Below, piece after piece: positions 7,216 through 60,351 of a stretch of 64,000 nucleotides of DNA (positions are counted from its first letter, which is position 1; each line of letters starts with the position of its first letter). This stretch comes from Bacteroidaceae bacterium. Lineage in GTDB: Bacteria; Bacteroidota; Bacteroidia; Bacteroidales; Bacteroidaceae. A model generated the notes under the pieces. It saw only the letters and a list, made by a program, of their open reading frames with translations, was not told the DNA's origin and did not search any database. The stretch spans positions 17,490-81,489 of the forward strand of contig JAFSPM010000049.1 of assembly GCA_017442855.1 (NCBI GenBank). Reading direction: 5' to 3'. The position numbers were made by a program, and so were the translations under genes.

Positions 7216-7249
7216 TTTTGGCTAAATGCAAAAAAGTAACTATTTTTGC
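7216..7249 (+). promoter_or_regulatory. Bacteroidetes sigma70-type promoter upstream of structured RNA copy 1
   Basis: TTTG (-33) followed by TATTTTTG (TAnnTTTG, -7) at roughly the usual spacing. Confidence 0.55.
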
Positions 7250-7333
7250 AGATGAACAATCGTCCTTTTAGAGAAAAGGACTTTGAGATGTGTTCAAAAA
7301 CAGAATAAATGTAGCGTTTTAACATATTATCCT

Positions 7334-7521
7334 TATTCAGGAACCTCGACAATTTTTGAATCGTATAGGATGATCGGCAAGACGCTCACACCCACTGATT
7401 TACCTTCCACATTCACAAAGTAAGGAATCATGGGCGTGGGCTGTTGCATGATATCATACGATGGGCAGTCGAGGGCCTCTGAATAGATATTGGCAACAAC
7501 ACCCACGCTTTCTTTTTTTTT
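7334..7521 (+). ncRNA. Structured RNA / attenuator-like leader, copy 1
   Basis: Nested inverted repeats TATTCAG/CTGAATA, CCTCGAC/GTCGAGG, ATCGTAT/ATACGAT, CTCACACCCA/TGGGCGTGGG. Alternative helix GCGTGGG-CTGTTGC with GCAACA..CCCACGC, followed by a T-tract. Homologous to 22382-22606. Confidence 0.7.
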
Positions 7522-7781
7522 ATCAGTCCAAGGGTCTTCTTGTCATATCTATTCTCTATCCTGAATCAAGGCAGACATAGCTTCAATATACAAAATGAGA
7601 AACACATTTTGGCACTGGCGCAGGGTAGATATGGCAAGACTCTATTCCTTATAAATTCTAGTTTTAAGGTTTTTAAAATTGAAGCTATACTGGAGCAAGG
7701 TTTTATGCCTTGCTCCTTTAAAAGGAAACCAAAAACAAAAATATCCATAAAAAACGCGCAAGACTACAATTCTTCATGGTT

Positions 7782-7814
7782 AAAAAAGGGCGGGATTCGC
7801 AATCCCGTCCTTTT
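7782..7814. terminator. Bidirectional intrinsic terminator
   Basis: AAAAAAGGGCGGGATT-CGC-AATCCCGTCCTTTT, downstream of the M15 gene. Confidence 0.8.
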
Positions 7815-7849
7815 CAATTAATCAGACCTCTATATAGTTGATGTGATGT

Positions 7850-8386
7850 TCAGCCTCGCAGGAACAATATCTTCCTTCTGTTATTCTGAGGTCTGGCGGC
7901 AAAGTGCAGCCAATAGACATAATTCGTCGGATCAGCTGATTCACTCCGCATGGTTCGTCGCTCCAGAATCAGTTCATCGTAATCCATGTTGCCAGCATTG
8001 GCAATCCAGATGATAACATTCATCAACTGTACGGCATGTTCGGGACCCATGCAACGTATGTCCACCGCGCAACCTGTCAAATGGTTGCTGGTAGGACTTG
8101 GGGACAGTCCGGTTTCTATCATCGCCTGCATCACCTGTTGCGAGCGATAGCCCTGATTGATGATGATTGGCTCAACGTTTACCGACTCATCGTAATCCTC
8201 ATCTGCTGCAATCACATGCCAACGATTGTAGTAATATCGTAAATCTTCCAGCCAGTACTTGCAGAGGTTTTCCAAATTCCTTATGGCTTCCTCGGTAGGC
8301 TCGTTGCCATCTGCTGTTTTATAGCTTGTTTTGGTTAACTCTCCTAACGTAAAGTGCGGGGAGAACTTCTTAGTTCTATCTAACAT
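7850..8386 (-). CDS. Peptidase M15A family (D-Ala-D-Ala carboxypeptidase / endolysin-like)
   Basis: Motifs SPHFTLGEL, GYRS, SNHLTGCAVDI, W.H zinc ligands. Confidence 0.85.
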   Translation of the reverse strand: MLDRTKKFSPHFTLGELTKTSYKTADGNEPTEEAIRNLENLCKYWLEDLRYYYNRWHVIAADEDYDESVNVEPIIINQGYRSQQVMQAMIETGLSPSPTSNHLTGCAVDIRCMGPEHAVQLMNVIIWIANAGNMDYDELILERRTMRSESADPTNYVYWLHFAARPQNNRRKILFLRG

Positions 8387-8409
8387 AATTCTTACTATTT
8401 ATTTTACAG

Positions 8410-8447
8410 AAACCTTCCTGTCATAAGTGGACAAGTGGGTAAGTGAA
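8410..8447 (+). repeat. Island motif copy A: AAACCTTCCTGTCATAAGTGG plus 8-bp-period AAGTGRR repeats
   Basis: Identical over 21 nt to the reverse complement of 22788-22808. Confidence 0.85.
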
Positions 8448-8466
8448 TATCTGTAGATTATTTTCC

Positions 8467-10956
8467 TCAAGGCAGTTCTTTCAGTAACTTGCGATAAGCA
8501 CCATAAGCAACACGCTCAATCACTTTGTCTTTCAGAAGTCTGTCAATGCAACGCGAGGCACTGGATTGTGAGATGTTAAACGCATCCATCAGCTGTTGCG
8601 TCTTAAACTCGTCTTGCAACTTCCGGTAGCATTCTTCATAGCGTGAAGTACGGCGACGCACAACAAACTCCTTGTTCTGGTCGGCATAATAGTTAAACGC
8701 CATCTCACCGAAAAAGAACTGTTGACTGCGGTACTGAATCTCCATCACAAGTCGGCACAGACGCTTGTCGGTATTATCCATCGTCAAGGACTTATTCTCC
8801 TGCCACTCATCCCAATGACGCATCAGGATAAAGGGTAAAGAGATACCAATGCCATAGTAAGGGATGCGTTTCAGCAAGGAACGGTCGGCCTTGTCGCCAT
8901 TAAACTGGGCTATCTCCATATGGTTCGACTGCCAGTCGAAGGTTTCATCATTCAACGGCTCAATAGGAATCTCACCCTCTACCTTGTCAAGGCGGAAAGC
9001 CCACTCCTTCAGTGTTTCGTTGGCTTTCAAATCCACCTGTTGGTAGCGTTCCGCCATGCCTGTGTCGGGCAATGGAATCACTGCCAGTCTGGTACTCATA
9101 CCCGTGCCGTAGTTACGCTGGTTCACCTTGCGGTGCAGGGCGTATGGCGTGCCTGTGTAGATGAAGTTCCAGAACACGTTGAACATGCCCGTCACGCTCT
9201 CCTGGTTGGCATACATCTGACCGTCCTGTTCGTTGTGAAACGCCTTCAGCTCCAACACCTCACGGTCTTTCCAATCGCCACCCTTGTTGTTCTTCGTCAC
9301 GTTGTCCAACTCAGAGTCGAACGAGAACATGTGCAGGTTGATTTCCTTGCCTTGCACCATCTCCTTGGCAGCCAACATGTGACGGATAAACTCGCCCGTT
9401 GCCGTGCGTGCCGGGTGTACGCGTATGCCCACTACAGGCTTCTTCAAGGCTTCGCCCTTCTGTGCCTTGGTCGAGGTACTGCGCTCGGTACGACCCTCTT
9501 TATAGCGGTTCACGGCATCGATGCCCAGCTGGTCAGCTTGAATAATCGGTTCTATAATCTTAAAATAAAACTTCTCAATCACATTCTTTCCAGAGCCAGG
9601 ATCACCGATAATGAAGATACTGTAGTTCAGCCTACGCATAATCTCGGGGTCATACCAGAAATGATACCACGCACGAGTCATCAGTGTGCCAAACATGGCA
9701 CCACTGGAGAACAATACGGCAGGTAATTTATGCGGATGCACATTGATGAACAGTTCCTTCATGCAGGGAAAGTGGTCGGCAAGTGCCTGTAAGTCATCTG
9801 CCCATTTATCCAATGGCAGCTGTGCATAGATGTCTTCTTCTTTTTTGGACGGAGAACTGGCAATTGATGATTGAGCATTATCCCCTGTGGAGTTAGGCGT
9901 TATATGATCATGATAGCTTTTACCGGTGACCGACAGGATAGCTGCCTGCATCTCTTTCGAAGGGTAGGGGTTCAGACTTTTCTTCTCACGGTCGGAGAGG
10001 TTGGAAGCTGCATCCTTAACGGTGGCTTCCACATTCTCATTACGTTCGTTGATGATTTCCTGCACCCACGACTGTGCCCGTAACACTGCCAATGCCTCGG
10101 TTTTGTCGCCATCGAGCATAATCAACAGGTCGGAAGCCAGTTTCAAGCTCTCCTTGTGGCGGTTGCTGTCTTCCTTGCAAGGTAGCTTTGCAGCAAAACG
10201 CTGGTTGATGATCTGTTGCAGGTCGTGACCACGCCATATCACTGGCAGCGCCACTTGCTCAGCAGCCACCTGCCCGCCCTTTGCAGCTGATGGTCTATCT
10301 GTCTGACGGGCCACGTCATCAGTGTTAGTAGCACCACTATTGCCAGCCCTGTATTGATCATTGTATTTCTTGCCAAATTCTTCGTTTTCATACGTAAACA
10401 ATTTTTCTTCGTTAATACTGATAATGTCATTTGCTGTCGTTATGAAGGCGCCACGACAACCATCCTTGCATGACTCATCGAGTTGTAAATCCAGTTTGTT
10501 GGAAAAGTCTTTTTGATTATCAATTAGATTACCTACTTCAACATCTGCCGTAAACACCACCTTCAAACCGTGTCCAGATGGTGTTACATACACCAGCAAT
10601 ATCCTGGCTTTGTCCTCTTCCGACAGACGGCTATAGGCTGTTTCCCATAGCTGACGCACATCCCCTTTCAGGTGGTCGTAGTCGGCTACCACCAGTCCAT
10701 TCAGGTTGACATGCTTCTGGAGGCGCCAGCATCCTTTCACGTTCTCTTTATTCTCCGACACGTCAAAGGTACAGATAAATACCATCAATGGCAGACTCCT
10801 CTTCTTCATTTCGTAGGCAGGCTTGTTGCCTTTCTCGTATTCCTCACGGGCTTCCCTTACCGTCCGAGCCACCTTTGACGACCTGACTATTGTCCAGAAC
10901 TGCTGGCGATTTACTGTTACTGTTGGCTTATCATACCACTGTTGAACGCAAAACAT
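8467..10956 (-). CDS. BT4734/VirE N-terminal (AEP primase-like) domain + DUF3987-like P-loop ATPase/helicase + C-terminal HTH
   Basis: Motifs KKRSLP, GLVVADYDH (DxD), TPSGHGLK, DESCKD..R; Walker A GDPGSGK; wHTH-like C-terminus (SQSSASRCIDRL..DKVIERVAYGAY). Confidence 0.8.
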   Translation of the reverse strand: MFCVQQWYDKPTVTVNRQQFWTIVRSSKVARTVREAREEYEKGNKPAYEMKKRSLPLMVFICTFDVSENKENVKGCWRLQKHVNLNGLVVADYDHLKGDVRQLWETAYSRLSEEDKARILLVYVTPSGHGLKVVFTADVEVGNLIDNQKDFSNKLDLQLDESCKDGCRGAFITTANDIISINEEKLFTYENEEFGKKYNDQYRAGNSGATNTDDVARQTDRPSAAKGGQVAAEQVALPVIWRGHDLQQIINQRFAAKLPCKEDSNRHKESLKLASDLLIMLDGDKTEALAVLRAQSWVQEIINERNENVEATVKDAASNLSDREKKSLNPYPSKEMQAAILSVTGKSYHDHITPNSTGDNAQSSIASSPSKKEEDIYAQLPLDKWADDLQALADHFPCMKELFINVHPHKLPAVLFSSGAMFGTLMTRAWYHFWYDPEIMRRLNYSIFIIGDPGSGKNVIEKFYFKIIEPIIQADQLGIDAVNRYKEGRTERSTSTKAQKGEALKKPVVGIRVHPARTATGEFIRHMLAAKEMVQGKEINLHMFSFDSELDNVTKNNKGGDWKDREVLELKAFHNEQDGQMYANQESVTGMFNVFWNFIYTGTPYALHRKVNQRNYGTGMSTRLAVIPLPDTGMAERYQQVDLKANETLKEWAFRLDKVEGEIPIEPLNDETFDWQSNHMEIAQFNGDKADRSLLKRIPYYGIGISLPFILMRHWDEWQENKSLTMDNTDKRLCRLVMEIQYRSQQFFFGEMAFNYYADQNKEFVVRRRTSRYEECYRKLQDEFKTQQLMDAFNISQSSASRCIDRLLKDKVIERVAYGAYRKLLKELP

Positions 10957-11373
10957 TTGTCAATCTCGCTGGTTAAAGTGTACAACTCCCTCCTTATCTC
11001 CATCAGTCCTTTACTCTTGATGCTGATCCATGCTGTGATGGCACCGTCTTTCTTGGTGAAACACACCTTCAGGTTGTCCTTGTTAATCAAGTACGTGCCC
11101 TTGGGCATGGTTGGCTTCTTCACCTGTATGTCCTTAGTCAGCTTTTCCAGTTCCTGCTGGAAGAAGGCCGCCTTGTCGGCCACATCATCCGGACATTTCA
11201 GTTCTACGCACATCAGCGGGTTCTTGCCTGTGGTGGCGTAGCGCTTTGAGCGTCCCACCTTCTTCACATCCTTCTGCGAGGGCGTACCCTCCGGCTTGTG
11301 GTGTCACTTCGATTGAGTTGTCGTCAAACACCCTGGTGTTCGACTTGAAACTTTTTACTACTTTCTTCATCAT
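10917..11373 (-). pseudogene. Small basic hypothetical protein, apparently split by a frameshift
   Basis: ORF 11185-11373 (ATG after a purine/A-rich leader) overlaps ORF 10917-11267, whose frame stays open up to 11303. Joined, they read MMKKVVKSFK..EVTP/KPEGTPSQKDVKKVGRSKRY. Confidence 0.5.
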
Positions 11374-11444
11374 GATTAATTGTTTGATTCTAACGCCCCT
11401 TCCTTTATTCTTTTCTCCTTATTTTCCCCTTTTCCTTTCTTTTT

Positions 11445-11512
11445 CACTGTATGGATGTGCCGCCTACTGACTGCAAGCAGATATGTAGGCTACACACATC
11501 CATACAGCAGTG
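11445..11512. other. Long intergenic stem-loop
   Basis: CTGTATGGATGTG/CACATCCATACAG, GCCTAC/GTAGGC and CTGC/GCAG nested arms. Confidence 0.7.
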
Positions 11513-11515
11513 TTT

Positions 11516-11809
11516 TTACTTGACATTGATTTTGTCGATATAGATGGTTGTCGCCTGCATCGCCTCGCCCGTCTGCTGCGAGTTCCATTCGCGTACCACC
11601 ATCGAGCATTGCACCCGATATTCGCGTGTGGGGTCGAACTTCGGACAACTCACAGCTTTCTCGCCCGTTATTTCCCCTAAGAATGTGTCGATGCCGTCGG
11701 TCATCTTCAGGGTCACGGCATTGATGACCTTCTGCTCACCTGTTTTCTTGTCCACATACTGGCGTGTGGACAGCGCACTCTGATTCAAAATTCTTACTGT
11801 ACTTTCCAT
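11516..11809 (-). CDS. Small beta-rich protein, possible OB-fold ssDNA-binding protein
   Basis: 97 aa with alternating beta-strand pattern (RQYVDKKTGEQK, DGIDTF.GE, VREW) and a position upstream of the primase-helicase. The fold is inferred. Confidence 0.55.
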   Translation of the reverse strand: MESTVRILNQSALSTRQYVDKKTGEQKVINAVTLKMTDGIDTFLGEITGEKAVSCPKFDPTREYRVQCSMVVREWNSQQTGEAMQATTIYIDKINVK

Positions 11810-12019
11810 TTTGATTTGTTTTTTAGAAAAGCCCATCCTTCTCCTTTTTGCTTTTTCCTTCGTCGTTTATCGCAGTCCTTTTGTTGCGACAGTGCAAATA
11901 TCGACAGAAAAGGGATGGCAACCATCTAATTACTTTGCATCGTAAATTACAAAGTATATTTCAGCTGGTTCATCGTAGATTTCACGACGAAAACAGGTGT
12001 TTTCTGTATGGAAAGAAAT

Positions 12020-12475
12020 TTATTTGATGCCGAGTGCCCCCATGAATTTCTCAGCTATCATTCTTTGGCGTTCAAATATCCTGTCGCCCTTCAAGGGTTC
12101 GAACGTTTGCCAGTGGTGATAGGGCTTTTGCAAGATACCGCTTGCTGCCAGTGGCTTTTGAATGGATTGGTAATCGGGTGCGAAAGTGGTGTGTGTGCCG
12201 CGCATGAGGTGGTTGATTCTTTTGAAGAAAGCGGCTATCTCTGAAGGGTAATCCAAATAATCTACCAGTATGCGATAGATGGCCACCCACTGTGATCTTA
12301 CCGAGAAGTAAGGCATGACCGATATTATGGCATCCCTTACAACTGTATCGCTGAGCAATCTCTGTGTTTGCTCCATCCTCTTGTCTTCTATCACGATATC
12401 CCTCAAGCATTGCTGCATGCTGTAGAACATCGCTACCAACTCAGGCTTATCACCCTTCTCAATTGTCACTCTCAT
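12020..12475 (-). CDS. Hypothetical protein (island-associated)
   Basis: 151 aa ORF with its own TAACTTTG promoter box (minus strand, 12590-12597). Confidence 0.65.
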   Translation of the reverse strand: MRVTIEKGDKPELVAMFYSMQQCLRDIVIEDKRMEQTQRLLSDTVVRDAIISVMPYFSVRSQWVAIYRILVDYLDYPSEIAAFFKRINHLMRGTHTTFAPDYQSIQKPLAASGILQKPYHHWQTFEPLKGDRIFERQRMIAEKFMGALGIK

Positions 12476-12610
12476 CTGTTTACATAATTAGAGAGTTGGG
12501 AGTAAAAGGGCTGCCCTGCGTTTTTTGAATGGGGTGTTCAATACGAAAGATTCACCACAACTAACCGACTCCTGCGGCAAATTGCGGCGCAAAGTTAAGA
12601 AAAAAAAAAC

Positions 12611-13786
12611 TCACATATCTTTTTTATAAATAGTAGCTGGCACGTCTATATAATCAGGATTTGACAAGCCCACCTCGGAATTAAGGTAACTGGGGTCACA
12701 CAATACATAGTTAAAACCATCCAAGGCGATGAAATCACCTGGCACCTCGTCGTTAAACCTTATACCTGTGCTGGCATGGCCTGGATATTCCAGAATGATG
12801 GTATCCAATCCCAGTATCTTTTCTACCAGATAGGTAAAGATAATCGACCTGTCCTCACAGTCATTTAATGAATAGTAGAACACTTCCTCCTTATAATAAG
12901 ACTTCTCAAACCCGAAGTTTTCATTATCTGTCATATAATTAAACGCCGTATGCATGAACTTCAGCAGCATGTTCACTGCCTCCACCTCGTTCTTGCCCTC
13001 CATCGCATTCCTCAGAGGCGGCACCAACTGCTGCTCTACATCGGGGTCAAGGGGCTGCCTGGCATAGAATGAAAGGTCTATTACCTGCGGAATCTCGGCA
13101 TAGAAGTCCATCAAGTTCTTGTTTACACTTACCTCCGTAATCATTGACAGATCTGTGGCGGAATTGAAGATTTGGGGTGGCAGGTAGTTTTTCTCAAACT
13201 TTATCAATGATGAGTTGGTAAAATCAAGCGCATTCAGTTCCACCTGGTTCTTAGCATTATTAGAAAGAGATGGAAGGATTCGTCCTTGCATGTCGTGCGG
13301 CACGTCAGTATCAAACAGATAGTAACGCTTGCCCTCGTATGACATGAACGGAATGGAAGCTAACCGTTCTTCCGACGTACAGGCAACAAACAAATGGCGA
13401 TTGTTCAGACAAGCCACCTTGGCTTCATACCCCAATTGGTTCAGCAGGTAGGCTTCTAACACAGCCGCCTCGTTCTTTCCCAACACATTAAGGACTACCA
13501 GCTGCTCGCTTATTTTCGTCACCAATTTGTATATGGCCCATCCGTTCAGGTTCATGCTTTCCCGTAGGTTACTGCATACCGCAACAATAGGCTGTATTTT
13601 GGCTTTTGTCAATTGTTTCCATGCCTTGCTAACCCTATAATCCGACACCTCGGTTATGGTAAACTGAAGTGACTTGTCCATGGGAAATTCCACTGGAGTC
13701 CCATAGAAAAAAACACTTATATTCTGACCCATTGTAAAAGTCCATAGGCCAAATATCATTAGCAATGACACAAGCAACTTCTTCAT
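12611..13786 (-). CDS. Secreted protein with transglutaminase-like Cys-His-Asp triad
   Basis: Signal peptide; NDCEDRS...YPGHASTGI...CDPSY. Confidence 0.7.
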   Translation of the reverse strand: MKKLLVSLLMIFGLWTFTMGQNISVFFYGTPVEFPMDKSLQFTITEVSDYRVSKAWKQLTKAKIQPIVAVCSNLRESMNLNGWAIYKLVTKISEQLVVLNVLGKNEAAVLEAYLLNQLGYEAKVACLNNRHLFVACTSEERLASIPFMSYEGKRYYLFDTDVPHDMQGRILPSLSNNAKNQVELNALDFTNSSLIKFEKNYLPPQIFNSATDLSMITEVSVNKNLMDFYAEIPQVIDLSFYARQPLDPDVEQQLVPPLRNAMEGKNEVEAVNMLLKFMHTAFNYMTDNENFGFEKSYYKEEVFYYSLNDCEDRSIIFTYLVEKILGLDTIILEYPGHASTGIRFNDEVPGDFIALDGFNYVLCDPSYLNSEVGLSNPDYIDVPATIYKKDM

Positions 13787-13787
13787 T

Positions 13788-16700
13788 CTATTTTAACACC
13801 TGATTCATTCTTTCATAAACAACCTGTCTAGCCTCTTCCATTTTCTGAGCGGTTATGCGTGACAGTTCCACACCACCATCCTTAAATAATTCTTTATACT
13901 TCCTTTTCAATGTGATTTTATAATGGAAGTCCTTGGGCTTGCCTGTCAGGTCAAGACCAAAATCAATGGGTATGGGAGATTCAAGCATGTCAATATGATA
14001 GTCATACATCATGTCAAGGTTATTCGTTCCTCCAGCCATCACCTCATAACGGTCCCATTTTATAATAAAAGGAATAACTTCTATCACGCTTTCATTCAGT
14101 ATAAAATTCACTTCTATTTTATCTATCAGGTTGCGTTTCTTGTTCTTAAATCTCAGCTTACTTGCAATCTCATCAAAAGTGGTGTTGTCAATAAGTGTCA
14201 AGTTTTGACCTTTTAAAGTACCAGCAACCTTGGCTGATGGCAATATTGATTTCATCTCAGAATTTAAGGAACTTTGACCTGTCAGGTGGACATCTGCTAT
14301 ACCATCCAGAGAATTAATCATTGGAAACATTGAACTCACAGACGGCACAACCCGATGAAGTTGGGCAAGAAGAACATCCCGGCAATTTAGGTCGAATATT
14401 GCATATAGCTGATTCCGTTTCCTACTATCATAAACAACATCAACTTCAGCTTTACCCAAATTCGTTTTCATATTTAATGTTGCGCGAGCCATTCTGTCAT
14501 CCACTTCAACATTACCGCTTACCTGGTGAAATTCTGCCTCCTCATATATAGCCCTCTCGATATCCAATTGTATATCTAAAGTTAGGTTAGCAGGTATATA
14601 TATGGGGTATTTCTTTTTTGCCTTACTATAATCATTTGCTGTCAGTGATTCTTCCATCTCTTTTATGGAATGTTGCATGGCTATAGAATCTGTTGATTCT
14701 TGCCGCATAGCCTCACCTGAAAGAAAAGTTGAAGAAAAATCGTCAAAATCAATATTGTCAGCCATTAGACGTAAACTCCCCTCAATCCGCTGCGTGTTCA
14801 TGACACTGTCATTTTCAGAAATAAGGGCACCTGACAACAACATCTTAGTATTGCCTGATTGAACATTCAGTCTGCTCAAAATTAACTGATTATTCCGTAT
14901 CCCAACACGTGATTCACTGATATCTATTCTTTGGGGGAAGTAAGAGTTCACAATGGATGCTTTATTGAAATCAACCTGTCCTTTCACCTGCCAGTTTTTT
15001 AAAACAAGCTCATTGCCAGCGGAAGCGGAGGAAGGTTGGAACTCTGAAATCAGATTTAGCGTTGACAGCTGTATGGCCAGTTTGTTTTTGCCATCTATTA
15101 ACCTCACGTCATCAGCTTTTAGGACTGCAGCACCCTCCATCTTTTTCCGGTTTAGAGAATAAGCCTTAGAGCCTGCATGAAACTCACCACTCGCTACTGC
15201 TATTGCAGTTTTAGAGCCTAATTGTCCTCTTAGTCTGTTCCAATTTAAATGTGCAGTTATGGGCGTTACCATGCTTGAATCATTGTTCAACACTGTATTG
15301 GCGCGTAAAGCAAGTTTTGATATCACGCAAGATATGGTATCCCCATAAAGTAAGCTTAAAGTATCTATGACAGCATCACACGACAAAACCTCATCTGCTT
15401 CGATAAAATCACTCCTATTTTTCTTATACCCGACTGACATGTCAATATCTTTGGCATAAAGATTGAGTTTGTACTTGTCGCTTTGTGCCATCAGATTGTC
15501 TGTTCTTAGTTTTCCTTCAGCCCACAAACGATGAAAATTCAACTCTTTTAAGTCATTCAGATTAAAGGCAAAAGAAAGGTCAGAATCAACCTTACCACTC
15601 ATGTTGATGTCCACCGAATCAAACAGTTCAGTTCCAACACGTTGGAAGTCGATATTACATGCTAAATCACCTGTTATGAATGGATTTCGTGTAAAATCGT
15701 TTATACGCCCATCTACATACACCCTACTATCCATACCACTGAGTCTCATATCCGATATTTCAACAAAACAGGAATCTGGCATATACCTATTATAATTCAT
15801 GTTAAACGCAAGGTTTATTGCGTCTATACCTTGCTTTATGCGTTTCCTGTATATGCTACCAGCATTGATATTACCCTTCAGCTTTACATTTGGCATCTCT
15901 CCTTTGCCAAATTTTCCAGACAGTTCTACATTACACGATGTATTGCCATCTATCACATACTGATCCTTTGGCATCTTTAAGGGCAAATAGTCAATTAAAT
16001 CACCCAGATCAGATGTCATTAGGATTGCTTTTAAATCAACAAATGGCGTTTCGTCTTTGGCAATATTCGACACTTTTCCTTCCAGCTGAAACGGAAACTG
16101 ATCTACAAGTAGGGTTAGTCCATCTGCAGTTATGTCATGGAAATTTTCGGTAGCCTGACAACGTCCGTTCATTGTCACCATTAATTGGCGATTAGCAAAT
16201 GGAATATCACCTTCAATGCTCAATAGCGCATTAAAATCTTCTATGTTAAATGAAGGGTGTTGCGCATTCAAGTCTCCCCTAAGACGAAGATTCATGTTAT
16301 CAAGATGATAAATAGCGGACTTGATGCTATCAACGACAGTAATATTCAAATTATCAAATCGGACTTCATTAATATTGAATCCCATTTGTTTGTTTCTATG
16401 GTCTCCTGTCTTGGTATGCAAATTGATCTTCCGGCTTAAATCAGCATGTGCGCTAACCTCCTCCAGAAACACATCCTCAATGATTAGTTGTTTTCCTGTT
16501 ATCAGCTTTATCAGGTTGATCTTGCCGCCAAAAGTCTTAAATCCTATATTTAACGCTTCATTTGCATAATCACTATCCATATCATCAGGGGGTACTGCCA
16601 CCATACCTTGTTTAACCACCACACTGACAGAAGGCCATTCCGTAAGATAATCAAGACCTATCCTCTCACAATCAAACCTAACGTTGGTTCGCTCGCTCAC

Positions 16701-16841
16701 TTCTTTTTTCACCAGACTCATTAACACATCAGGTGTCAATACATAGAAACGTAGTACCAAGTAGGTTATTGCCGACAGTAACATCACTACTGCCGACAAC
16801 AAACCCACAATGAACGAGACAACTCTAATGATCTTGATCAT
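13788..16841 (-). CDS. AsmA-like membrane-anchored beta-rich protein
   Basis: N-terminal TM helix, ~1000 aa of beta repeats, C-terminus IEVIPF....RY....GG.NNLDM.YDYHI. Confidence 0.7.
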   Translation of the reverse strand: MIKIIRVVSFIVGLLSAVVMLLSAITYLVLRFYVLTPDVLMSLVKKEVSERTNVRFDCERIGLDYLTEWPSVSVVVKQGMVAVPPDDMDSDYANEALNIGFKTFGGKINLIKLITGKQLIIEDVFLEEVSAHADLSRKINLHTKTGDHRNKQMGFNINEVRFDNLNITVVDSIKSAIYHLDNMNLRLRGDLNAQHPSFNIEDFNALLSIEGDIPFANRQLMVTMNGRCQATENFHDITADGLTLLVDQFPFQLEGKVSNIAKDETPFVDLKAILMTSDLGDLIDYLPLKMPKDQYVIDGNTSCNVELSGKFGKGEMPNVKLKGNINAGSIYRKRIKQGIDAINLAFNMNYNRYMPDSCFVEISDMRLSGMDSRVYVDGRINDFTRNPFITGDLACNIDFQRVGTELFDSVDINMSGKVDSDLSFAFNLNDLKELNFHRLWAEGKLRTDNLMAQSDKYKLNLYAKDIDMSVGYKKNRSDFIEADEVLSCDAVIDTLSLLYGDTISCVISKLALRANTVLNNDSSMVTPITAHLNWNRLRGQLGSKTAIAVASGEFHAGSKAYSLNRKKMEGAAVLKADDVRLIDGKNKLAIQLSTLNLISEFQPSSASAGNELVLKNWQVKGQVDFNKASIVNSYFPQRIDISESRVGIRNNQLILSRLNVQSGNTKMLLSGALISENDSVMNTQRIEGSLRLMADNIDFDDFSSTFLSGEAMRQESTDSIAMQHSIKEMEESLTANDYSKAKKKYPIYIPANLTLDIQLDIERAIYEEAEFHQVSGNVEVDDRMARATLNMKTNLGKAEVDVVYDSRKRNQLYAIFDLNCRDVLLAQLHRVVPSVSSMFPMINSLDGIADVHLTGQSSLNSEMKSILPSAKVAGTLKGQNLTLIDNTTFDEIASKLRFKNKKRNLIDKIEVNFILNESVIEVIPFIIKWDRYEVMAGGTNNLDMMYDYHIDMLESPIPIDFGLDLTGKPKDFHYKITLKRKYKELFKDGGVELSRITAQKMEEARQVVYERMNQVLK

Positions 16842-16860
16842 CTTTCTCTACAATATTTTA

Positions 16861-18225
16861 TCAGAAACAAATACCAGCACCAATAACATGGCGAGATTTC
16901 TTTATCAAGTCTGCATCATCCTTTGAAACAGCAAAGCGATACTGGAAAGTATATCTTAACACTACGGGACCAATCTTACCCAACAGACCTATTTCGGGAG
17001 AAATCGCACTATGCACTTTCAAGGTAGGCTTTTCATACACTTTCCCTTCCACCTTCTCATCAGTAGCATTCTCCACGTATGAGTTCTTGACGTATGCTGA
17101 CCCATCCTCGTTCTCATACGTTCCGATGCCTGTAAAGCCAGGACCAAAGAAAATCCACACAGGTGCCTGTTTGACAGGACATATTGTAAAGCCGGCTGAA
17201 ATATTAAGCTCTGCATCTGAAACCTTGTCAAAATTGCTTCTCATAACTTCGAATATGTCCGTATTAAAGCTTAGGCTGAAATAACTGCCGGTTTTACGCG
17301 TCTTGTATGAGCCAACGGTAATACCAATTGGAGCACTCCCGCTATACTCGTATGCAATGACAGCAGATTTTTGATTTCTGTTTTGCTGCAGCAGTTTTAT
17401 CCTCTTCACCTGTTCGCTGGCAAGCAGGGAGTTACTGCAATTCTGATCAATAACCCTTTGATAGAGTTCCAATGCTTTATCATATTCACCATTCTCCTTG
17501 TACACCTCAGCATTGTTGTAATATTGCGTGCAGTCATTACCAGACAATCTCCTGGCCTCATAGCGTTTGTTGGACGCATTGGAATCTTGTGGATTTAGCT
17601 GCATGATCTTACCGTATAAATCGTCCGCTTTCGAGTAATCCAACAAATCAAAAGCATCGGCAGCCAGCTTTTGCCATGTTTCAATGCTGTCAATGTTGGC
17701 AATCAGCTGCTCCAGGTTATTATCTGCAGGGCAGTCAGAACACTCCTTGGCTATGTTGTACTGCTCTCTTGCCTCGGTGTACATGGAATTCTGGAAGAAC
17801 TCAATACCACGTTTCCTATACTCATAATAACAGCCATAAACAAAATCCGCATCCGGATCCAATAATTGATACTGCTTTAGTTCCTTTGGTTCCAAGGTTG
17901 CATCCAGTGTTATGGGAGCGAAGTCATCAGTACGAATGGTAAGTTTTCTACCACGATACCTCCTGCCTGTATTAAATTTGAGGTAATAGAAGGTTTCCTC
18001 GCCTTTTTCTTCTTTATTGTAAACATCAACTGTTTTGTCATGAGTTGATTCAAAAGATAGTTGCATATTGGAAGGGCAAGAGATTACTATGCCTGCTTCA
18101 GTATCTTTTCCAGAGAACACATTAAGCGAAGTCGTCACATCTTTGACCTCCAATGTACGTTGAGCAAATGCAGTGCCAGCTACAGTTAACAACAAGGCCA
18201 GCAGAGTAAAAAAACGGTTTTTCAT
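16861..18225 (-). CDS. TPR-containing outer-membrane protein with C-terminal beta-barrel
   Basis: Signal peptide, TPR helices (YSKADDLYGKIMQLNP; GEYDKALELYQRVI), barrel-like C-terminus ending GAGICF. Confidence 0.7.
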   Translation of the reverse strand: MKNRFFTLLALLLTVAGTAFAQRTLEVKDVTTSLNVFSGKDTEAGIVISCPSNMQLSFESTHDKTVDVYNKEEKGEETFYYLKFNTGRRYRGRKLTIRTDDFAPITLDATLEPKELKQYQLLDPDADFVYGCYYEYRKRGIEFFQNSMYTEAREQYNIAKECSDCPADNNLEQLIANIDSIETWQKLAADAFDLLDYSKADDLYGKIMQLNPQDSNASNKRYEARRLSGNDCTQYYNNAEVYKENGEYDKALELYQRVIDQNCSNSLLASEQVKRIKLLQQNRNQKSAVIAYEYSGSAPIGITVGSYKTRKTGSYFSLSFNTDIFEVMRSNFDKVSDAELNISAGFTICPVKQAPVWIFFGPGFTGIGTYENEDGSAYVKNSYVENATDEKVEGKVYEKPTLKVHSAISPEIGLLGKIGPVVLRYTFQYRFAVSKDDADLIKKSRHVIGAGICF

Positions 18226-18245
18226 ATTCTTAATTTTTAACGTTA

Positions 18246-19241
18246 TTAGTCTTCTATCAATGATCTCACTATGTCAAAGTCGCCCAAACTGAAAATCTCA
18301 TCACGAGTAAGCACCCTTCCTTCCAGTTTCTCTGGTTGCCAAGTGCGTACTTGTATCAAAGGGTTTAACTCATCCTGAAAGTCAATCATCAGGAAAACAA
18401 AGCCCACATCTCTGTATCGGTCACTATTCCACTGCTGCTTTAGGGTCACGCCATAAATATCCGTGAGCTTAGGGTGCTGTATTACCTCCACCTCGTCAAA
18501 CAACACGTTGATGTATTTGTTACTGGCAAACACCTTTTTCAGGTTGGCAATATATTCCGCTTTGGTTCGTTTCTGATAAACAACACGTTCACGGCCCAGC
18601 GACTGGAGGGCACGATCGCTCTTGGGCTTCTCACGGATAACCTTTCCTGTAATGATCAATGCATTGTCGGAGAAAACAGACTCAATATACTTTAAGTCTT
18701 TGCGGTTATAAGATGTCCTGTAGTTCTCAACAAAGTCAACGATCACCTGTCTTCTATAAAGATCTTGTACTGATTCATGCTCATCCATTATCTCCTTATA
18801 TTTATTCTCGTCTATGGATATCGAAATGTCATCAATCTGTCCTACAGGCGTAAATGTGAATACCAGCTCTTGTTCCTGACTGTCATCATCAGCTTCAAGC
18901 ATCACTACAGGCACATTTCGCACTTGATATCCTGATGATGTCTGAATACAGATTTCCTCTATTTTTGAGACAGGACAAGACATCGGACTTGTTTTCCACA
19001 TCTCACTCAATATTTTTTGAGCCTCAGATGTCAGTTCTTTCTTCACATTCGGCTTGCCACCATTCATGACAGCACTATTACATGCTATCAGGAAATTTGA
19101 AAGGTTGCGTTCTATAGATGACTTAAGTTGTGCCTTTCCTTCCAAACCATCGGTTATTTCAACTTGCGTAGTCTCAAGCTGTGCATATAAGTATCCTGTA
19201 GAGACAACACATAATAAAAATAATATCGCCAGTTTTTTCAT
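18246..19241 (-). CDS. Secreted hypothetical protein, C-terminal NTF2-like domain
   Basis: Signal peptide; FVENYRTSYNRKDLKYIESVFSDNALIITG pattern. Confidence 0.65.
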   Translation of the reverse strand: MKKLAILFLLCVVSTGYLYAQLETTQVEITDGLEGKAQLKSSIERNLSNFLIACNSAVMNGGKPNVKKELTSEAQKILSEMWKTSPMSCPVSKIEEICIQTSSGYQVRNVPVVMLEADDDSQEQELVFTFTPVGQIDDISISIDENKYKEIMDEHESVQDLYRRQVIVDFVENYRTSYNRKDLKYIESVFSDNALIITGKVIREKPKSDRALQSLGRERVVYQKRTKAEYIANLKKVFASNKYINVLFDEVEVIQHPKLTDIYGVTLKQQWNSDRYRDVGFVFLMIDFQDELNPLIQVRTWQPEKLEGRVLTRDEIFSLGDFDIVRSLIED

Positions 19242-20365
19242 TTTAATAATGTTTTAAGATAATGTTGAGGTATATTAGTAATAAAATCAGCTTTCAACAC
19301 AGGCTTTGATATGAAGACATCTTTCGCTGTTGTCTTCACTCGCAGCATATGGATAAAATTGAGCGTCTTATGGTTAAAAACCACAATACTCTCCAGTGTT
19401 CCGTCTTCCAGCTCACCTGTATGGGCAAAACATGTAAAATCTTCAGAAAAAATATCCATGAACACATGCAAAGGAACAGTTATTTCAGGTGTGAAGTGTC
19501 CATATTGACGGTGGGTAATTTTCAGGTTCACTTTCTTTCCATTACTATGGATAAGAAAAAGATTGTTCAGACTCAATACAGGGTAGTCCGTTGCAAACAA
19601 AGGGATATAGTTGTCGCCTTGTTTCCTGTAATATACGTCCGATGATAAGGTCTGCAGTTGGTAGCGTACACCTGTTTTTACATATATATCTTTTACATAA
19701 TGCTTTAACCCGACACCACTTTTCAGCGTTTCATCATCATGCATCGAGGCAGTCTTACTTTCTGCAATTTTAATGTATAAAAGCTCGTCAGACTCCTGTT
19801 TGTCAGTCCCTTCTATCAACTCTCTATATAACGGGAATGACAACGTCAATACATGAGTTCCGTACTGCCATACCCCACGCCCTTGATTATCCTCTAAAAA
19901 CAAAGAGAAGCTTGCGGGCATATCCATCTCCTCCAACACCTTGCGAAGGGATCTGAACAAGCCATTGCCATAGTCTATACCGTCTAGTTTCAGTGTCACA
20001 GTATATTCCACCAATTTGGACATCACGCCTTCAGATTCCTGTTGTTCACAAAGTTCCAGAAAGAAACGCTCTATAAAGTCACAGAATTGTTGGCCAGCTA
20101 TTCTCTTCGTTTCCCGACTGAACAAGGAAATCCCTGCGTGACAGAGAAAACCTGATTCATTATACTGGATAGTTATAGACTTTCCCCTCAAAATCTGCGG
20201 AACCATAATCAGAGAATCCTTCTTAGGCAGGTTGTCCAAATGAAGCCCCTCTACCAGCTGTCTGACCTTCCGGCTGGAATACTCAATGTCTGTATAAGGT
20301 GTAGCCAAAACCTGTGAAAGGCACAGACACATGGTCAAAAATAATACCATTCTTCGTATTGTCAT
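19238..20365 (-). CDS. Secreted hypothetical protein
   Basis: 375 aa with signal peptide; ATGA overlaps with both neighbours. Confidence 0.75.
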   Translation of the reverse strand: MTIRRMVLFLTMCLCLSQVLATPYTDIEYSSRKVRQLVEGLHLDNLPKKDSLIMVPQILRGKSITIQYNESGFLCHAGISLFSRETKRIAGQQFCDFIERFFLELCEQQESEGVMSKLVEYTVTLKLDGIDYGNGLFRSLRKVLEEMDMPASFSLFLEDNQGRGVWQYGTHVLTLSFPLYRELIEGTDKQESDELLYIKIAESKTASMHDDETLKSGVGLKHYVKDIYVKTGVRYQLQTLSSDVYYRKQGDNYIPLFATDYPVLSLNNLFLIHSNGKKVNLKITHRQYGHFTPEITVPLHVFMDIFSEDFTCFAHTGELEDGTLESIVVFNHKTLNFIHMLRVKTTAKDVFISKPVLKADFITNIPQHYLKTLLK

Positions 20366-22272
20366 TTTTGCGTGGGTCTTAAAATGTTCTTAATTTCATT
20401 TTTAACAGCACAATAGCCATTTATGAGGTCTTCCTCTGCCAGTATATACTTGCTTAGCCATTCTTTGGATTTCTGGAAGTCAAACTCCACCGTATTACCA
20501 TCCAGATACATGTCTGCCAGTTCCTTCATAGCCTTGGTACTATTCTTTGCAGCAGCTTTTTGAAGCAAATCTTTAGCCTTGGCTACATCTTCACTAACGA
20601 GAATGCCTTCCCTGTACATGATTCCCATTTCTGCCATAGCATCAGGGTATTGCATATCCACCGCACGTTGATAGTAAGACAATGCACGGCTTTCATCAAC
20701 ATCAACGCCAATACCTTCCTTATAGGCCCATCCTAAACGATATGAGGCATACGGACTTCTTTTTAATACTGCTTTCTCATAGCACCTGATGGCTTCCTTA
20801 GGGTCAGTACTGTCATCATACTGTTCCAAAATAGCATCACCGCAAAGAACCATAGCATCTGTATATCCCGAATCATAAGCCCGTTGATAAAGTTCTTGCG
20901 CTTTTCTCATATCCTTTTCAACCCCATTACCTTCTTGATATAGCTTTGCCAAGTTAAGCATGGCAAACAGGTTATTCTTGCCAACTGCTTCCATGAAATG
21001 TGCTACAGCCATACGCATATTCTTTTTCGTTCCCAAACCAGAAGCAATCATACAAGCGAGGTCGTTTAGGGCAGATGCGCTGGAAGACGCTTCTGTGCTT
21101 TTCCTGTTAAGCAATCTCCTTAACTCAAGATTAGAAGTTTTGCTTTCATCTGGGATGGCCGTATAAGATAATCCATCATAATTCTCAGGAACCTTGAGAA
21201 GTATTATCTCGTCTTCGTTTTTTTCTCCTTTTTTCATACCATCCACAAAGGTTTGCTGAACAACGGTTCCAATTAGCCTTTCTCCAAGAGTATGCAGAAG
21301 GAATTCAAATTGTTCAGTTTCGTTTGAAGCTTCCTTGTTCTCTGTTTCATCAGGAGAGTAAAACGATGATTTAAAGCCATCAAAATCCACGTCAAACAGT
21401 TCTGCAACAACCGAACTCATGCCTGTTTTAGGTGTTCTCTCAACTCCAGCATCTTGATTTTTTGCAACAAATCGGAAAGACATGTCCTCGTCTGCCAATT
21501 TAGCCTCTGTCTCTAAGGAACCGTTACTGTTTATTCCCAAGTTTTTCAAAACGGCTGAGTGATCATTCAAACGCATCCACAGATTACCCTCTTGGGAATA
21601 TAAGTCCAATATCCACTGTTCATGCCCATTGGAATCAATATTTCTTGACACCCATCTTCCTAAAAGTTTTCCGTCTGCCTGCACGCTTCTTACCTCAGGC
21701 ACGACTCTCAAAGAGTCAACAGTTAGCGTGTCCTCCTCAGCTTCTGTAGTCAATGTTTCAGATAAAACAACAGAAAATTTAGGCTTATCAACTGTCTCTG
21801 CCAACTTTACAGCCCCTACTTCTTCTTCCTCTGTAATCGCATTATCCAAGCCTGTTTCCTCTGATTCTGCTTTTGGCACGATAGCCTCTGTAACCAGAAG
21901 ATTTTCCTTCGACTTGAAGTCTTTCTCTATCTCATCTATCCTCTGCTGTATAATGCTGGCATTGTCAGCATCAGGCTTAAGTTTAAGGTACTGGCTATAG
22001 CTTATCTGAGCCTTTCTTTGCAAGTTGGCATCATACTTCATGCTATAGAAAATGTCACCGAGCTGAAGATAAGGGTCAGGCAATCCTGGCGCCTTGGTCA
22101 ATAGCTCCTTGTAGATATCAATTGCTTTATCCGTATCTCCCTTCTTTTGGGCGACACTGGCCTGGTAGAAAAGTTTCAATAGCTGTTCTCTTGTTACTTG
22201 CTGGGCCGAAACAGAAATGTAGCACACACAGAGCAACAAAACAATAACAGATGACCTTCTAAATAATCTCAT
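20362..22272 (-). CDS. TPR + Sel1-like repeat protein, secreted
   Basis: Signal peptide from ATG 22272; N-terminal TPR; several Sel1 repeats (AMLNLAKLYQEGNGVEKD, LGWAYKEGIGVDVD). Confidence 0.85.
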   Translation of the reverse strand: MRLFRRSSVIVLLLCVCYISVSAQQVTREQLLKLFYQASVAQKKGDTDKAIDIYKELLTKAPGLPDPYLQLGDIFYSMKYDANLQRKAQISYSQYLKLKPDADNASIIQQRIDEIEKDFKSKENLLVTEAIVPKAESEETGLDNAITEEEEVGAVKLAETVDKPKFSVVLSETLTTEAEEDTLTVDSLRVVPEVRSVQADGKLLGRWVSRNIDSNGHEQWILDLYSQEGNLWMRLNDHSAVLKNLGINSNGSLETEAKLADEDMSFRFVAKNQDAGVERTPKTGMSSVVAELFDVDFDGFKSSFYSPDETENKEASNETEQFEFLLHTLGERLIGTVVQQTFVDGMKKGEKNEDEIILLKVPENYDGLSYTAIPDESKTSNLELRRLLNRKSTEASSSASALNDLACMIASGLGTKKNMRMAVAHFMEAVGKNNLFAMLNLAKLYQEGNGVEKDMRKAQELYQRAYDSGYTDAMVLCGDAILEQYDDSTDPKEAIRCYEKAVLKRSPYASYRLGWAYKEGIGVDVDESRALSYYQRAVDMQYPDAMAEMGIMYREGILVSEDVAKAKDLLQKAAAKNSTKAMKELADMYLDGNTVEFDFQKSKEWLSKYILAEEDLINGYCAVKNEIKNILRPTQK

Positions 22273-22381
22273 ATTCAGTAACACATTGTAAATAACACAC
22301 TTATCGCACCGACACATCACATAAAATATGCCTTGCGACTCTCCTGCAAAAAAAAAGTTTCTGGAAAGGGACTTGTGCCCT

Positions 22382-22606
22382 AAAAAAGAAAAAGCGTGAG
22401 AGTCTGTACCTGTTACTCGTCCCACCTTTAGAGGCTCTCGCATTGCCCATCTGATCAGAACGAGCAACGCAGAAGCCCACGCTGTGATATGATAATGCCT
22501 TGCCTTGTGATAAAGGCATAAGACTGACATTAAAAACATATCCCAATGAACATCTATCGTTGCCTTGTCTTTTGATCAGATTGAAACTTGCGAGATTTCT
22601 AAAGGT
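22382..22606 (-). ncRNA. Structured RNA / attenuator-like leader, copy 2 (5' of cargo operon)
   Basis: ACCTTTAGA/TCTAAAGGT, CTCGCA/TGCGAG, ATCTGATCA/TGATCAGAT, GCAACG/CGTTGC, GATATG/CATATC. Alternative helix GCGTGGG..GTTGCTCGTTC with GGACGAGTAAC..CTCACGC, then a T-tract. Confidence 0.72.
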
Positions 22607-22760
22607 CAAAGACAAAGCGCATAATAAACGCTTTTCCAACTATGTCTGCACCCACCCTTCACTTTAAAACTTTTACATATTAAGGTTACAGGGCAACTGC
22701 AACTGCAAAGGAAAAGATTTATTTTTGTTTTTGCAAGTATTTATAAGAAAAGTTTTTTTT

Positions 22761-22963
22761 TACCCACTTTCTCACTTTCTCACTTTCCCACTTATGACAG
22801 GAAGGTTTTTTGATGTAGAATTGGATAGTTATAATTTGTAAGGTAAAATATTTACAAGAATACTATAATAATATTAATAATATTATTATAGTATTCTTGT
22901 AGTATGCATACAAGTGTATTTGCAGAACATTCTTGTCATAAGTGGGTAAATGAGCAAGTGGGC
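22761..22963. repeat. Inverted motif copies B and C bracketing a perfect 49-bp palindrome (22853-22901)
   Basis: CCCACTTATGACAGGAAGGTT (22787-22807) and AACATTCTTGTCATAAGTGGG (22926-22946); central TACAAGAATACTATAATAATATTA-A-TAATATTATTATAGTATTCTTGTA. Confidence 0.9.
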
Positions 22964-22997
22964 AACCTCCCTTACTTTGACAAGATACTGCCCTAAA

Positions 22998-23058
22998 GTT
23001 GTATAGTATCAAACTGGAGGTTGTATAGTATCAAACAGTGAGTTTGCTAGTATCAAAC
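22998..23058 (+). repeat. Three iteron-like repeats, 22-bp period
   Basis: GTTGTATAGTATCAAAC at 22998 and 23020; GTTTGCTAGTATCAAAC at 23042. Confidence 0.85.
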
Positions 23059-23117
23059 TTGGTCGTGCCTGTTTATCAGTAAAGACAAATCTTTTTCTAC
23101 ATTATTTATTCGAAACA

Positions 23118-23266: not shown

Positions 23267-23920
23267 ATGGCAACTAACAGAATTGCTTTGGGGATTAATC
23301 TCCGCAAAAACAAAATCAACGGTAACTCTGGCTACGGCAAGTATTACCCAGTGGTAGATCGTCAGCAAACCCTCAACTTGCGCGGTTTTGCAGAGCACAT
23401 GGTAGATCACGGATCGAAATGGAACCGTGGTGAGCTGGAAAGCGTGCTCTTCCAAATCACCGAGTGCCTGCCCGAGCTGGTGGCACAAGGCGTTCCCGTG
23501 CAGCTGGGCAGTCTGGGTACCTTCTACCCAACGGCACAGATTGTAAAGGGTGCCAGTGTGGCCAGCATCGAAGAGATGGACGGTCTGAACCCTAACACTT
23601 TGGTGAAGGCTATCCACATCCGCTTCAGACCCGACGCTACCAAGCTGGATAACCTCTGCGGTCCTGCCTTCAAGAACGCCTGCACCTTGGAATTGCGTAA
23701 CATCATCGAGACCGAGAAGGTAACCATTGATGGCAAGGTGAAGGTATTGCAGCAGCTTACCCCTATCTCTACAGCTGTGGCAATGACCCGTGCAGGCAAT
23801 GGTGGCTCAACCTCTGGCAGTGGCAGCAGCAACAGCGGCACTGGTTCCGGCACCAACAATGGTGGTAACACGGGTGGCAATACCGGAGGCAACGACGGTG
23901 GCGACGGAATGCAGGTATAA
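23267..23920 (+). CDS. HU-related (histone-like) DNA-binding protein with Gly-rich tail
   Basis: GKYYP, FAEHMVDHGS, ELVAQGVPVQLGSLGTFYPT, IHIRFRPD; G/S/N/T C-terminal tail typical of the Bacteroidetes HU_rel family. Confidence 0.85.
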   Translation: MATNRIALGINLRKNKINGNSGYGKYYPVVDRQQTLNLRGFAEHMVDHGSKWNRGELESVLFQITECLPELVAQGVPVQLGSLGTFYPTAQIVKGASVASIEEMDGLNPNTLVKAIHIRFRPDATKLDNLCGPAFKNACTLELRNIIETEKVTIDGKVKVLQQLTPISTAVAMTRAGNGGSTSGSGSSNSGTGSGTNNGGNTGGNTGGNDGGDGMQV

Positions 23921-60159: not shown

Positions 60160-60202
60160 GAATCTTTTCCTTTTTAAGTTTAACACTAAAAAGGGGATAA
60201 TA

Positions 60203-60290
60203 CATCCTTTGTTCCCTACGTCGGCATTACCCGCATCAGGTTTAATGGGTATGATCTCAGCCCGTCATTTTAAGGCACCCCTTACGAAAT
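60203..60290 (-). promoter_or_regulatory. TPP riboswitch
   Basis: Minus strand GGGGTGC...GGCTGAGA.CATACCC..AACCTGATGCGGGTAATGCCGACGTAGGGA matches the THI-box consensus. Confidence 0.95.
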
Positions 60291-60351
60291 CGGGGGCAAA
60301 GATAGGTATTTTTTTTATTTTTTCACTATCTTTGCAAACAAATAATAAGAA

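Follow-up and report, generated by a model that had tools for sequence, protein, structure and literature searches.

The window considered here is a stretch of 64,000 nucleotides (nt) from the genome of a Bacteroidaceae bacterium (assembly GCA_017442855.1, contig JAFSPM010000049.1, positions 17,490 to 81,489), and it contains two diverged copies of a structured RNA element that recurs in other Bacteroidales. Here, we propose that this element is a leader controlling the genes behind it by transcription attenuation, with a kissing-loop interaction as the trigger; we give this reading a probability of roughly two in three. The surface diversity of gut Bacteroidales is controlled by promoter inversion and by UpxY/UpxZ antitermination; the element would add a widespread RNA leader placed before accessory surface, polysaccharide, peptide and defence genes. 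It is laid out as a Bacteroidota -7 promoter box, a hairpin A, a variable tip and a hairpin B that is terminator-shaped and ends in a U-tract, usually followed by a gene on the same strand. Hairpin A carries a barcode a, an apical stem-loop with the kissing heptamer b, and a barcode c, while hairpin B carries the counterparts c', b' and a' in that order.

The loops of the two hairpins are complementary, and their pairing gives a long rod that abolishes the terminator. An earlier note on this DNA had described the single long rod, and the rod is real: its fold energy lies at z -4.1 in copy 1 and -5.1 in copy 2, and none of 200 shuffles of either copy was as good. It is only one of two mutually exclusive folds, however, the alternative, which the note missed, being hairpin A plus terminator with kissing loops. 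The family was assembled by a pattern search, in which 278 matches in 295 sources gave 129 fully parsed members, 117 of them distinct, 107 non-redundant and 103 retained once four with shifted anchors had been removed. The pattern fixed the d' motif and the apical stem of hairpin B, and loop b was identified through its complementarity to b'; the invariance of these parts is therefore not evidence. In transcripts cut before d', hairpin A is predicted in 100 of the 103 members and its apical stem in 88; once a' has been transcribed, the rod is the best predicted fold in 102, and for the full leader in 101. When the terminator is forced, its stem has a median length of 24 bp, and the 8 nt behind it contain a median of 7 U. 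All of these energies omit the kissing interaction, which would favour the two-hairpin state. Cognate pairing exceeds non-cognate pairing in 103/103 members for a:a', 101/103 for c:c', 99/103 for d':d'' and 90/103 for x:y. By predicted fold and covariation, mutually exclusive terminator and antiterminator folds like those of pT181/pIP501-type attenuators are present. Both apical stems are compatible, base by base, with a:a', b:b' and c:c', and the ON state may therefore be a four-way junction with kissing loops in which both apical stems are kept.

Covariation across the family supports both folds and bears out the earlier suggestion of a structured RNA under selection for pairing. The columns of helix a:a' pair in 81-100 of the 103 members, against 42-70 in shuffles, and two pairs of the apical stem of hairpin A are formed in 100 (72 in shuffles) and 87 (51 in shuffles). 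Among 51 disjoint sister pairs, helix a:a' has 135 double changes that keep pairing and 17 that break it, while a slid control gives 13 kept and 74 broken; for apical stem A the figures are 18 kept and 6 broken, against 3/18 and 1/17 in slid controls. The 3' strand of apical stem A is unpaired in the plain rod, which argues that the small hairpin-loop fold around b is selected in its own right. In the terminator base stem, all 37 one-sided changes in the same sister pairs keep pairing. Sequence and covariation together support hairpin A, its small apical loop, apical loop B, helices a:a' and c:c', and the terminator-shaped hairpin B with its U-tract.

The upstream loop can also be predicted out of sample. 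A covariance model was built from the 3' half alone, using 47 sequences and no copy from this genome, and it scores the two window copies at 58 and 94 bits. The model contains no 5' information, and its best match per genome gave 30 loci, or 29 once the one from this genome is excluded. An exact upstream complement of loop B is found in 13 of the 29 in a distant window and in 13 of the remaining 16 in a nearer one, making 26/29; two further loci pair through G-U (judged by eye), giving an upstream partner loop in 28/29. Each of these 6-mers is also present in 0-4 of 16 other loci, most of which share the code. The out-of-sample members bring new loop codes, a minimal form whose tip is tiny, and an apical B stem with a compensated change from GGC:GCC to GGT:ACC. 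Loci L045 and L046 have the same apical B stem change.

By its sequence context, the element is a promoter-proximal leader. In 72 of the 83 members with room for one, a box fitting the Bacteroidota -7 consensus is present 60-160 nt ahead of loop A; the opposite strand has it in 15/83. An open reading frame (ORF) begins within 400 nt downstream on the same strand in 83/89 members, on the opposite strand in 5/89 and on neither in 1/89, with 28 members too short to judge; a cruder first count gave 65 same-strand, 4 opposite, 21 none and 27 too short. With near-duplicates and the genes of this genome excluded, 56 of the 65 first genes were scanned against Pfam. A match was found in 25/56, spread over about 20 unrelated families: leucine-rich repeat (LRR), Ig-like, collagen, TonB plug, carboxypeptidase-like and lipocalin domains, glycosyl- and acyltransferases, NusG (two), LytTR, AbiH, PAPS reductase, IS110, EF-Tu and Hsp70. 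Many of the first genes without a match start with a signal-peptide-like sequence, as judged by eye. In this genome, the copies head operons of 6-10 kb, among them operons for secreted proteins, a radical-SAM cluster and tandem double-glycine-type peptides (the peptides named by eye). Upstream neighbours (53 scanned of 80) include seven integrases or resolvases, two HU-HIG genes and one VapE. An upstream ATG ORF of at least 8 codons occurs in 55/103 members, a count made without a control, and no common start was seen in the alignment. On the antisense strand, the TAnnTTTG box is found in 8/101 members only, at four different offsets; a conserved antisense promoter of this type was not found, other promoter types being outside the scan.

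The barcodes change quickly while staying matched within a leader. In 24 sister pairs at least 78% identical, the fraction of differing sites is 0.44 in a' and 0.38 in c', 0.21 in the tip-adjacent strand, 0.07 in b and 0.04 in d'. Of 178 short-form matches, 78 could be parsed; in the 42 distinct leaders among them, tips of identical sequence are flanked by reassorted combinations of a, b and c. The arms do not match in four of these leaders, possibly through chimeric assembly. Within this genome, nine copies pair with themselves at -27.8 to -43.1 kcal/mol (mean -34) and with each other at a mean of -14.5 and a best of -24.3 kcal/mol, and are mutually insulated; for the window pair, cross-pairing reaches -12 kcal/mol against -28 and -37 for self-pairing. 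Fast barcode change and insulation fit selection against cross-talk, and hence action in trans. As an observation apart, the 5' and 3' barcodes are mismatched at loci L307, L394, L413, L426 and L519, which are recombinants or assembly chimeras, and at L519 the terminator-like fold is the best predicted one.

In the proposed mechanism, hairpin A would fold first and hold the antiterminator strand. Once loop B emerges, it would kiss loop A over 7 bp; zipping of the barcodes and strand exchange would follow and produce the rod, making the terminator impossible (ON). A blocked or late kiss would let hairpin B close some 35-45 nt later, and RNA polymerase would stop (OFF). Copy 2 would in this way control the TPR/Sel1 operon behind it. 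The input that blocks the kiss may be a leader RNA of matching barcode, either terminated or processed, that would bind to loop A in trans, an idea that carries somewhat less than half of the weight of the attenuator reading; it would give self-limiting, immunity-like control by analogy with phage P4 CI RNA. The rest of that weight lies with elongation speed or a protein as the input. For homologue L056, three RNA-seq runs of one isolate study contain a free-standing contig of 254-257 nt that begins close to the predicted start and reaches the base of the terminator stem; a contig from a metatranscriptome ends close to the terminator, and a run of unrecorded kind continues through. All eight runs for this locus are available as contigs, which cannot give RNA ends, strand or level, and the leader-sized contigs are a weak hint.

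Taken further, the leaders could form a system that silences accessory genes throughout the Bacteroidales by barcoded RNA alone, in which a terminated leader or cut hairpin B would kiss nascent leaders of the same barcode and force their termination. We regard this extension as doubtful, if worth stating for what would follow from it. Each barcode would be both a self-sustaining ON/OFF switch and an immunity group, such that an incoming cassette with a resident barcode would be silenced and one with a new barcode expressed. Surface, defence and bacteriocin operons would be under phase-variation-like control with neither DNA inversion nor a protein regulator, and barcode shuffling would be driven by it. 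Such silencing would be a new route to heritable expression states and to the gating of incoming mobile DNA. Independently of this, the architecture resembles engineered strand-displacement transcription switches, and naturally orthogonal barcodes could supply insulated regulatory parts for Bacteroides engineering.

Several points weigh against the attenuator reading and its input in trans. The terminator is the best fold of the full leader in 0/103 members, and forcing it costs a median of 12.3 kcal/mol without kissing energy (2.1 kcal/mol in copy 1 and 15.1 kcal/mol in copy 2), so that the OFF state would have to be kinetic or assisted. The rod-only helices x:d'' (54/103) and y:d' (60/103) have little cognate advantage. 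Pairing of the loops in 103/103 members is by construction, the terminator base, whose 5' strand was set by the search pattern, has only one double change among the 51 sister pairs, and the out-of-sample locus L504 has no loop A. Five of the 89 members, including copy 1, are not followed by a gene on their own strand. A terminated RNA, once released, could kiss itself and relax to the rod, weakening any action in trans, and fast barcode change could reflect relaxed constraint and gene conversion. Within this genome, the loop-B motif occurs only in full copies, and no stand-alone half was found. Termination, read-through, switching and the expression of both window copies are predictions, and a trans-acting half is hypothetical.

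Four other explanations have to be set beside attenuation. The leader could be a riboswitch or ion sensor, its junction and kissing-loop fold binding a metal or a second messenger and thereby stabilising the ON fold. The covariation is compatible with a compact junction bearing kissing loops, and the presence of many copies ahead of diverse envelope, polysaccharide and regulator genes is what a second-messenger regulon would look like; yet nearly every conserved base pairs in one of the two folds, the loop code varies freely and the first genes, 25/56 of them annotated, share no common downstream pathway. We regard a ligand sensor as improbable. We give a similarly low standing to a processive antitermination site, whether put- or EAR-like or a UpxY-loading leader, at which the RNA alone or with a NusG paralogue would modify the polymerase and the terminator would serve as a checkpoint. 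Long operons stand behind the copies here, and the cargo resembles that of NusG-paralogue regulons as they are outlined in PMC11685472, but only 2/56 first genes are NusG-family (UpxY-like) and 54/56 are not NusG-like. Polymerase modification would also be needless, since the rod removes the terminator by direct pairing. No NusG paralogue was present among the first genes scanned behind the copies of this genome, and a NusG search of the whole genome returned nothing, although it also missed core nusG (the genome is 80% complete). At loci L076 and L185, the leader stands immediately before the NusG-family gene, stacking two antitermination layers.

A free-standing small RNA, a 6S-like rod or a sponge that came to lie ahead of genes by chance, would account for an own promoter and U-tract, for the rod as equilibrium fold, for orphan copies and for the leader-sized RNA contigs. 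It would not predict the 83/89 bias in gene orientation and leaves selection on the mutually exclusive hairpin A unexplained, and the genome has a separate match to RF01693; it seems less probable still than the two preceding explanations. The least probable of the four is a palindromic repeat acting at the DNA level, or a recombination end, of mobile cassettes, whose apparent covariation would arise from hairpin-templated repair. The integrases and resolvases in 7/53 upstream neighbours, the shuffling of modules and the truncated copies in a relative genome (G010) are in its favour. Against it, helix a:a' has 49 G-U against 14 A-C on this strand, promoter and U-tract have a fixed polarity, the inward pair of the window is not conserved and the covariation of the apical stems lies outside the palindrome arms.

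The transcription attenuator proposed here does not belong to an RNA family in Rfam 15, which gave no match at gathering score in the window other than an unrelated thiamine pyrophosphate (TPP) riboswitch; the earlier note likewise could not assign the motif to a known family. E-value scans of both copies returned sub-threshold matches to unrelated families only, and no match was found on 10 homologous loci. On sequence evidence, the leader family is uncatalogued and structurally well supported. A description of it was not found in the literature: the readable supplements of PMC8040213, PMC10994844 and PMC10690425 do not contain the motif, their largest files being unsearched, so that listing as an unnamed candidate is possible, and neither Bacteroides nor Prevotella is named in the main text of PMC11109978 or of PMC8632094, the supplement of PMC11109978 being outside the search. 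Two RNAs of the same order were considered and rejected. FopS has, in the sections of PMC11697453 that describe it, a single-stranded 5' stretch and a terminator, is multi-copy and is in Rfam; the FopS/GibS small RNAs and RF01693 resemble the leaders in being multi-copy (FopS) or rod-like structured RNAs, and neither matches here, the leaders having a different architecture from FopS, a strongly paired 5' half and no Rfam match. The Bacteroidales-1 RNA RF01693 matches contig C28 of this genome at 155.7 bits, a locus other than the window copies. We take RF01693 to be 6S RNA.

The closest design is the CI RNA of phage P4, which with seqA/seqC, like IsrK, is an untranslated leader of a mobile element with a segment complementary to an upstream segment and premature termination, as summarised in PMC4825925. 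Here too, segment c'-b'-a' pairs with the upstream a-b-c in the same transcript. The complementary parts here, however, are two apical loops and two barcode helices, one inside the terminator's own loop, and there is no sequence or Rfam match; processing and action in trans being hypothetical here, the family is not placed in that class. Antisense attenuators owe their specificity to loop sequence. Those of pT181, pIP501 and pAM-beta-1 and Shigella RnaG share the alternative terminator and antiterminator folds and a loop-loop kiss as first contact (in the account of PMC2879508), but their antisense RNA is counter-transcribed, whereas both partners here are in one transcript. The Bacteroides UpxY opsX leaders likewise precede surface-related Bacteroidales operons; opsX is a pause site with a pause hairpin, and a kissing pair or internal terminator of this kind is not part of its description in the relevant sections of PMC11685472. 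Three-helix attenuators and riboswitch platforms have the same anti-antiterminator, antiterminator and terminator logic in a 5' leader. Neither a conserved leader peptide nor an aptamer is evident here, and the predicted trigger is instead an intramolecular kiss with hypervariable barcodes.

The genome (2.76 Mb) contains at least 10 copies of the leader: iterated nhmmer finds 8, one of which, on contig C31 near 105.9 kb, has a decayed 3' half, and a loop motif search adds two diverged copies on contigs C49 and C15. The 3'-half covariance model recovers 7, the window pair among them, and misses C49, C15 and the decayed copy. In whole-genome nhmmer, the window copies retrieve each other at E 4e-4 and 6e-4. 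BLAST with copy 2 matches 15/24 genus genomes and 0/16 genomes from other families. The pattern scan matches 2/7 other genomes of the order Bacteroidales and 0/293 genomes outside it, and the covariance model matches 33/140 other Bacteroidales genomes, with up to 13 matches per genome. In GTDB, the pattern scan gives an estimate of about 3000 matching stretches, most of them Bacteroidales by the titles listed, while a few short contigs of metagenome-assembled genomes are labelled otherwise. BLAST against plasmids and against phages gave two partial matches each, and many pattern matches in IMG/VR proved to be chance and were removed by an anchor filter.

Individual members vary in form and cargo. 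At loci L040, L048 and L307 a small extra hairpin is inserted in loop B, directly 3' of the kissing heptamer, and many members have a second short conserved hairpin between U-tract and start codon, as at 22330-22347 (-) in the window and at loci L002, L003 and L030. Leaders truncated inside or after the 5' hairpins occur at several loci (L008, L036, L517 and L518, in G010); L008 has a truncated copy, a nucleotidyltransferase gene and a full copy in tandem. Of the partial 5' matches in G010, one is a full diverged copy and the other four are truncated or interrupted. A diverged leader on contig C15 (near 54.2 kb, -) is followed by short peptides in a tandem array, with leader motifs of the double-glycine type (by eye); this array is bacteriocin-like or resembles arrays for ribosomally synthesised and post-translationally modified peptides. 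The leader-headed operon at L003:918-10344 (-) ends with a radical SAM gene and a small peptide gene, and peptide genes like the latter lie directly behind leaders at L245 and L289.

In the window, the motifs, their order and the three stem pairs that the earlier note quoted (for example CTCGAC/GTCGAG against CTCGCA/TGCGAG, and TATTCAG/CTGAATA against CCTTTAG/CTAAAGG) were all located, in copy 1 at 7334-7521 (+) and in copy 2 at 22382-22606 (-), facing inward as described. The extent has been revised: each element begins about 90 nt farther upstream, at its -7 box. In copy 1, this box, of TAnnTTTG type, lies at 7241-7248 and a predicted 5' hairpin H1 at 7262-7281. Hairpin A, predicted to fold first and to act as anti-antiterminator, occupies 7310-7390 (z -3.3, with family covariation) and comprises barcode a at 7334-7340, the apical stem-loop at 7340-7356 with heptamer b at 7344-7350, and barcode c at 7360-7366. 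The terminator-shaped stem of hairpin B spans 7434-7508 (z -3.6, with a covariance-model match), with c' at 7456-7462, the apical stem-loop at 7463-7478 around heptamer b' at 7468-7474, and a' at 7479-7485; the U-tract follows at 7509-7521. In copy 2, on the minus strand, the box is at 22706-22713, H1 at 22648-22700 and hairpin A at 22549-22635 (z -1.9, with 9/200 shuffles as good), containing a at 22605-22599, the apical stem-loop at 22599-22583, b at 22595-22589 and c at 22581-22573. A variable tip hairpin at 22483-22548 separates it from hairpin B at 22394-22482 (z -3.2, again with a covariance-model match and terminator-shaped), in which c' is at 22457-22449, the apical stem-loop at 22448-22432, b' at 22442-22436 and a' at 22431-22425, before the U-tract at 22382-22393. 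A sigma-70 scan does not cover this promoter type, and it missed both of these long-loop terminators.

The earlier note had placed the copies at the ends of an island. Their inward orientation holds, but the inward pair as a functional unit was rejected: it is not conserved in G010, and the barcodes do not match. The stretch from rsgA to DUF2027 is a variable insert of about 17 kb here, holding about 5.5 kb of other genes in G010, in a context of pyrH-frr-rsgA, BT4734-like, M15 and HU-HIG genes. Copy 2 lies about 1.5 kb inside its right end, with a divergent HU-HIG gene beyond (23267-23920, +). Behind copy 2 is a six-gene operon (12611-22272, -) encoding a Sel1/TPR protein with a signal-peptide-like start at 22272, a Cds6_C-like protein, a TPR protein and proteins without assignment; the orthologous TPR/Sel1 operon of G010 is on another contig behind a copy 2 orthologue, so the leader travels with the operon. 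G010 has no leader between rsgA and DUF2027 and no second copy in the 14 kb around the operon orthologue. A separate module of small genes, a gene for a BT4734-like N-terminal protein and a peptidase M15 gene (7850-12475, -) has a promoter-like box upstream near 12590. Copy 1 is a short form whose short-form relatives head genes, whereas only a 19-codon ORF (7595-7654, +) lies 3' of it, followed by a terminator-like hairpin at 7692-7716. An RNA linked to rsgA was considered for copy 1 and rejected, as its matches, in 13/150 genus genomes, are unlinked to that gene (rsgA in none of 14 loci examined). From the G010 layout, these unlinked relatives and the lone short ORF, the inward arrangement is likely to result from stacked cassettes, with copy 1 likely an orphan left by cassette loss. 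The ORF is possibly a remnant of lost cargo; it has no DNA match among 200 genus genomes. It lies within an inverted repeat (7577-7595 / 7670-7688), whose pairing would mask the region around its start.

A second inward pair lies on contig C31 (L005), at 105880-106230 (+) and 112660-113000 (-), around a 6 kb operon whose head copy has lost its B arm. The B arm of the orphan pairs with the A arm of the decayed head at -34.8 kcal/mol (103 others: best -31.3, mean -19.4), and this pair may be an inverted duplication or a case of real trans control.

Other features of the window stand apart from the leaders. A 37-nt inverted repeat (89%) at 8410-8446 and 22772-22808 brackets 14.3 kb, from the gap between the M15 and BT4734 genes to just upstream of the copy 2 promoter. 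It has a third copy at 22926-22965, with a perfect 24-bp AT-rich palindrome in between (22853-22901), and similar repeats occur on contig C14; these are possible recombination or protein-binding sites. Three tandem 22-nt repeats lie upstream of the HU-HIG gene (22998-23063), and the TPP riboswitch, an ordinary one, is at 60194-60292 (-), scoring 57.9 bits.

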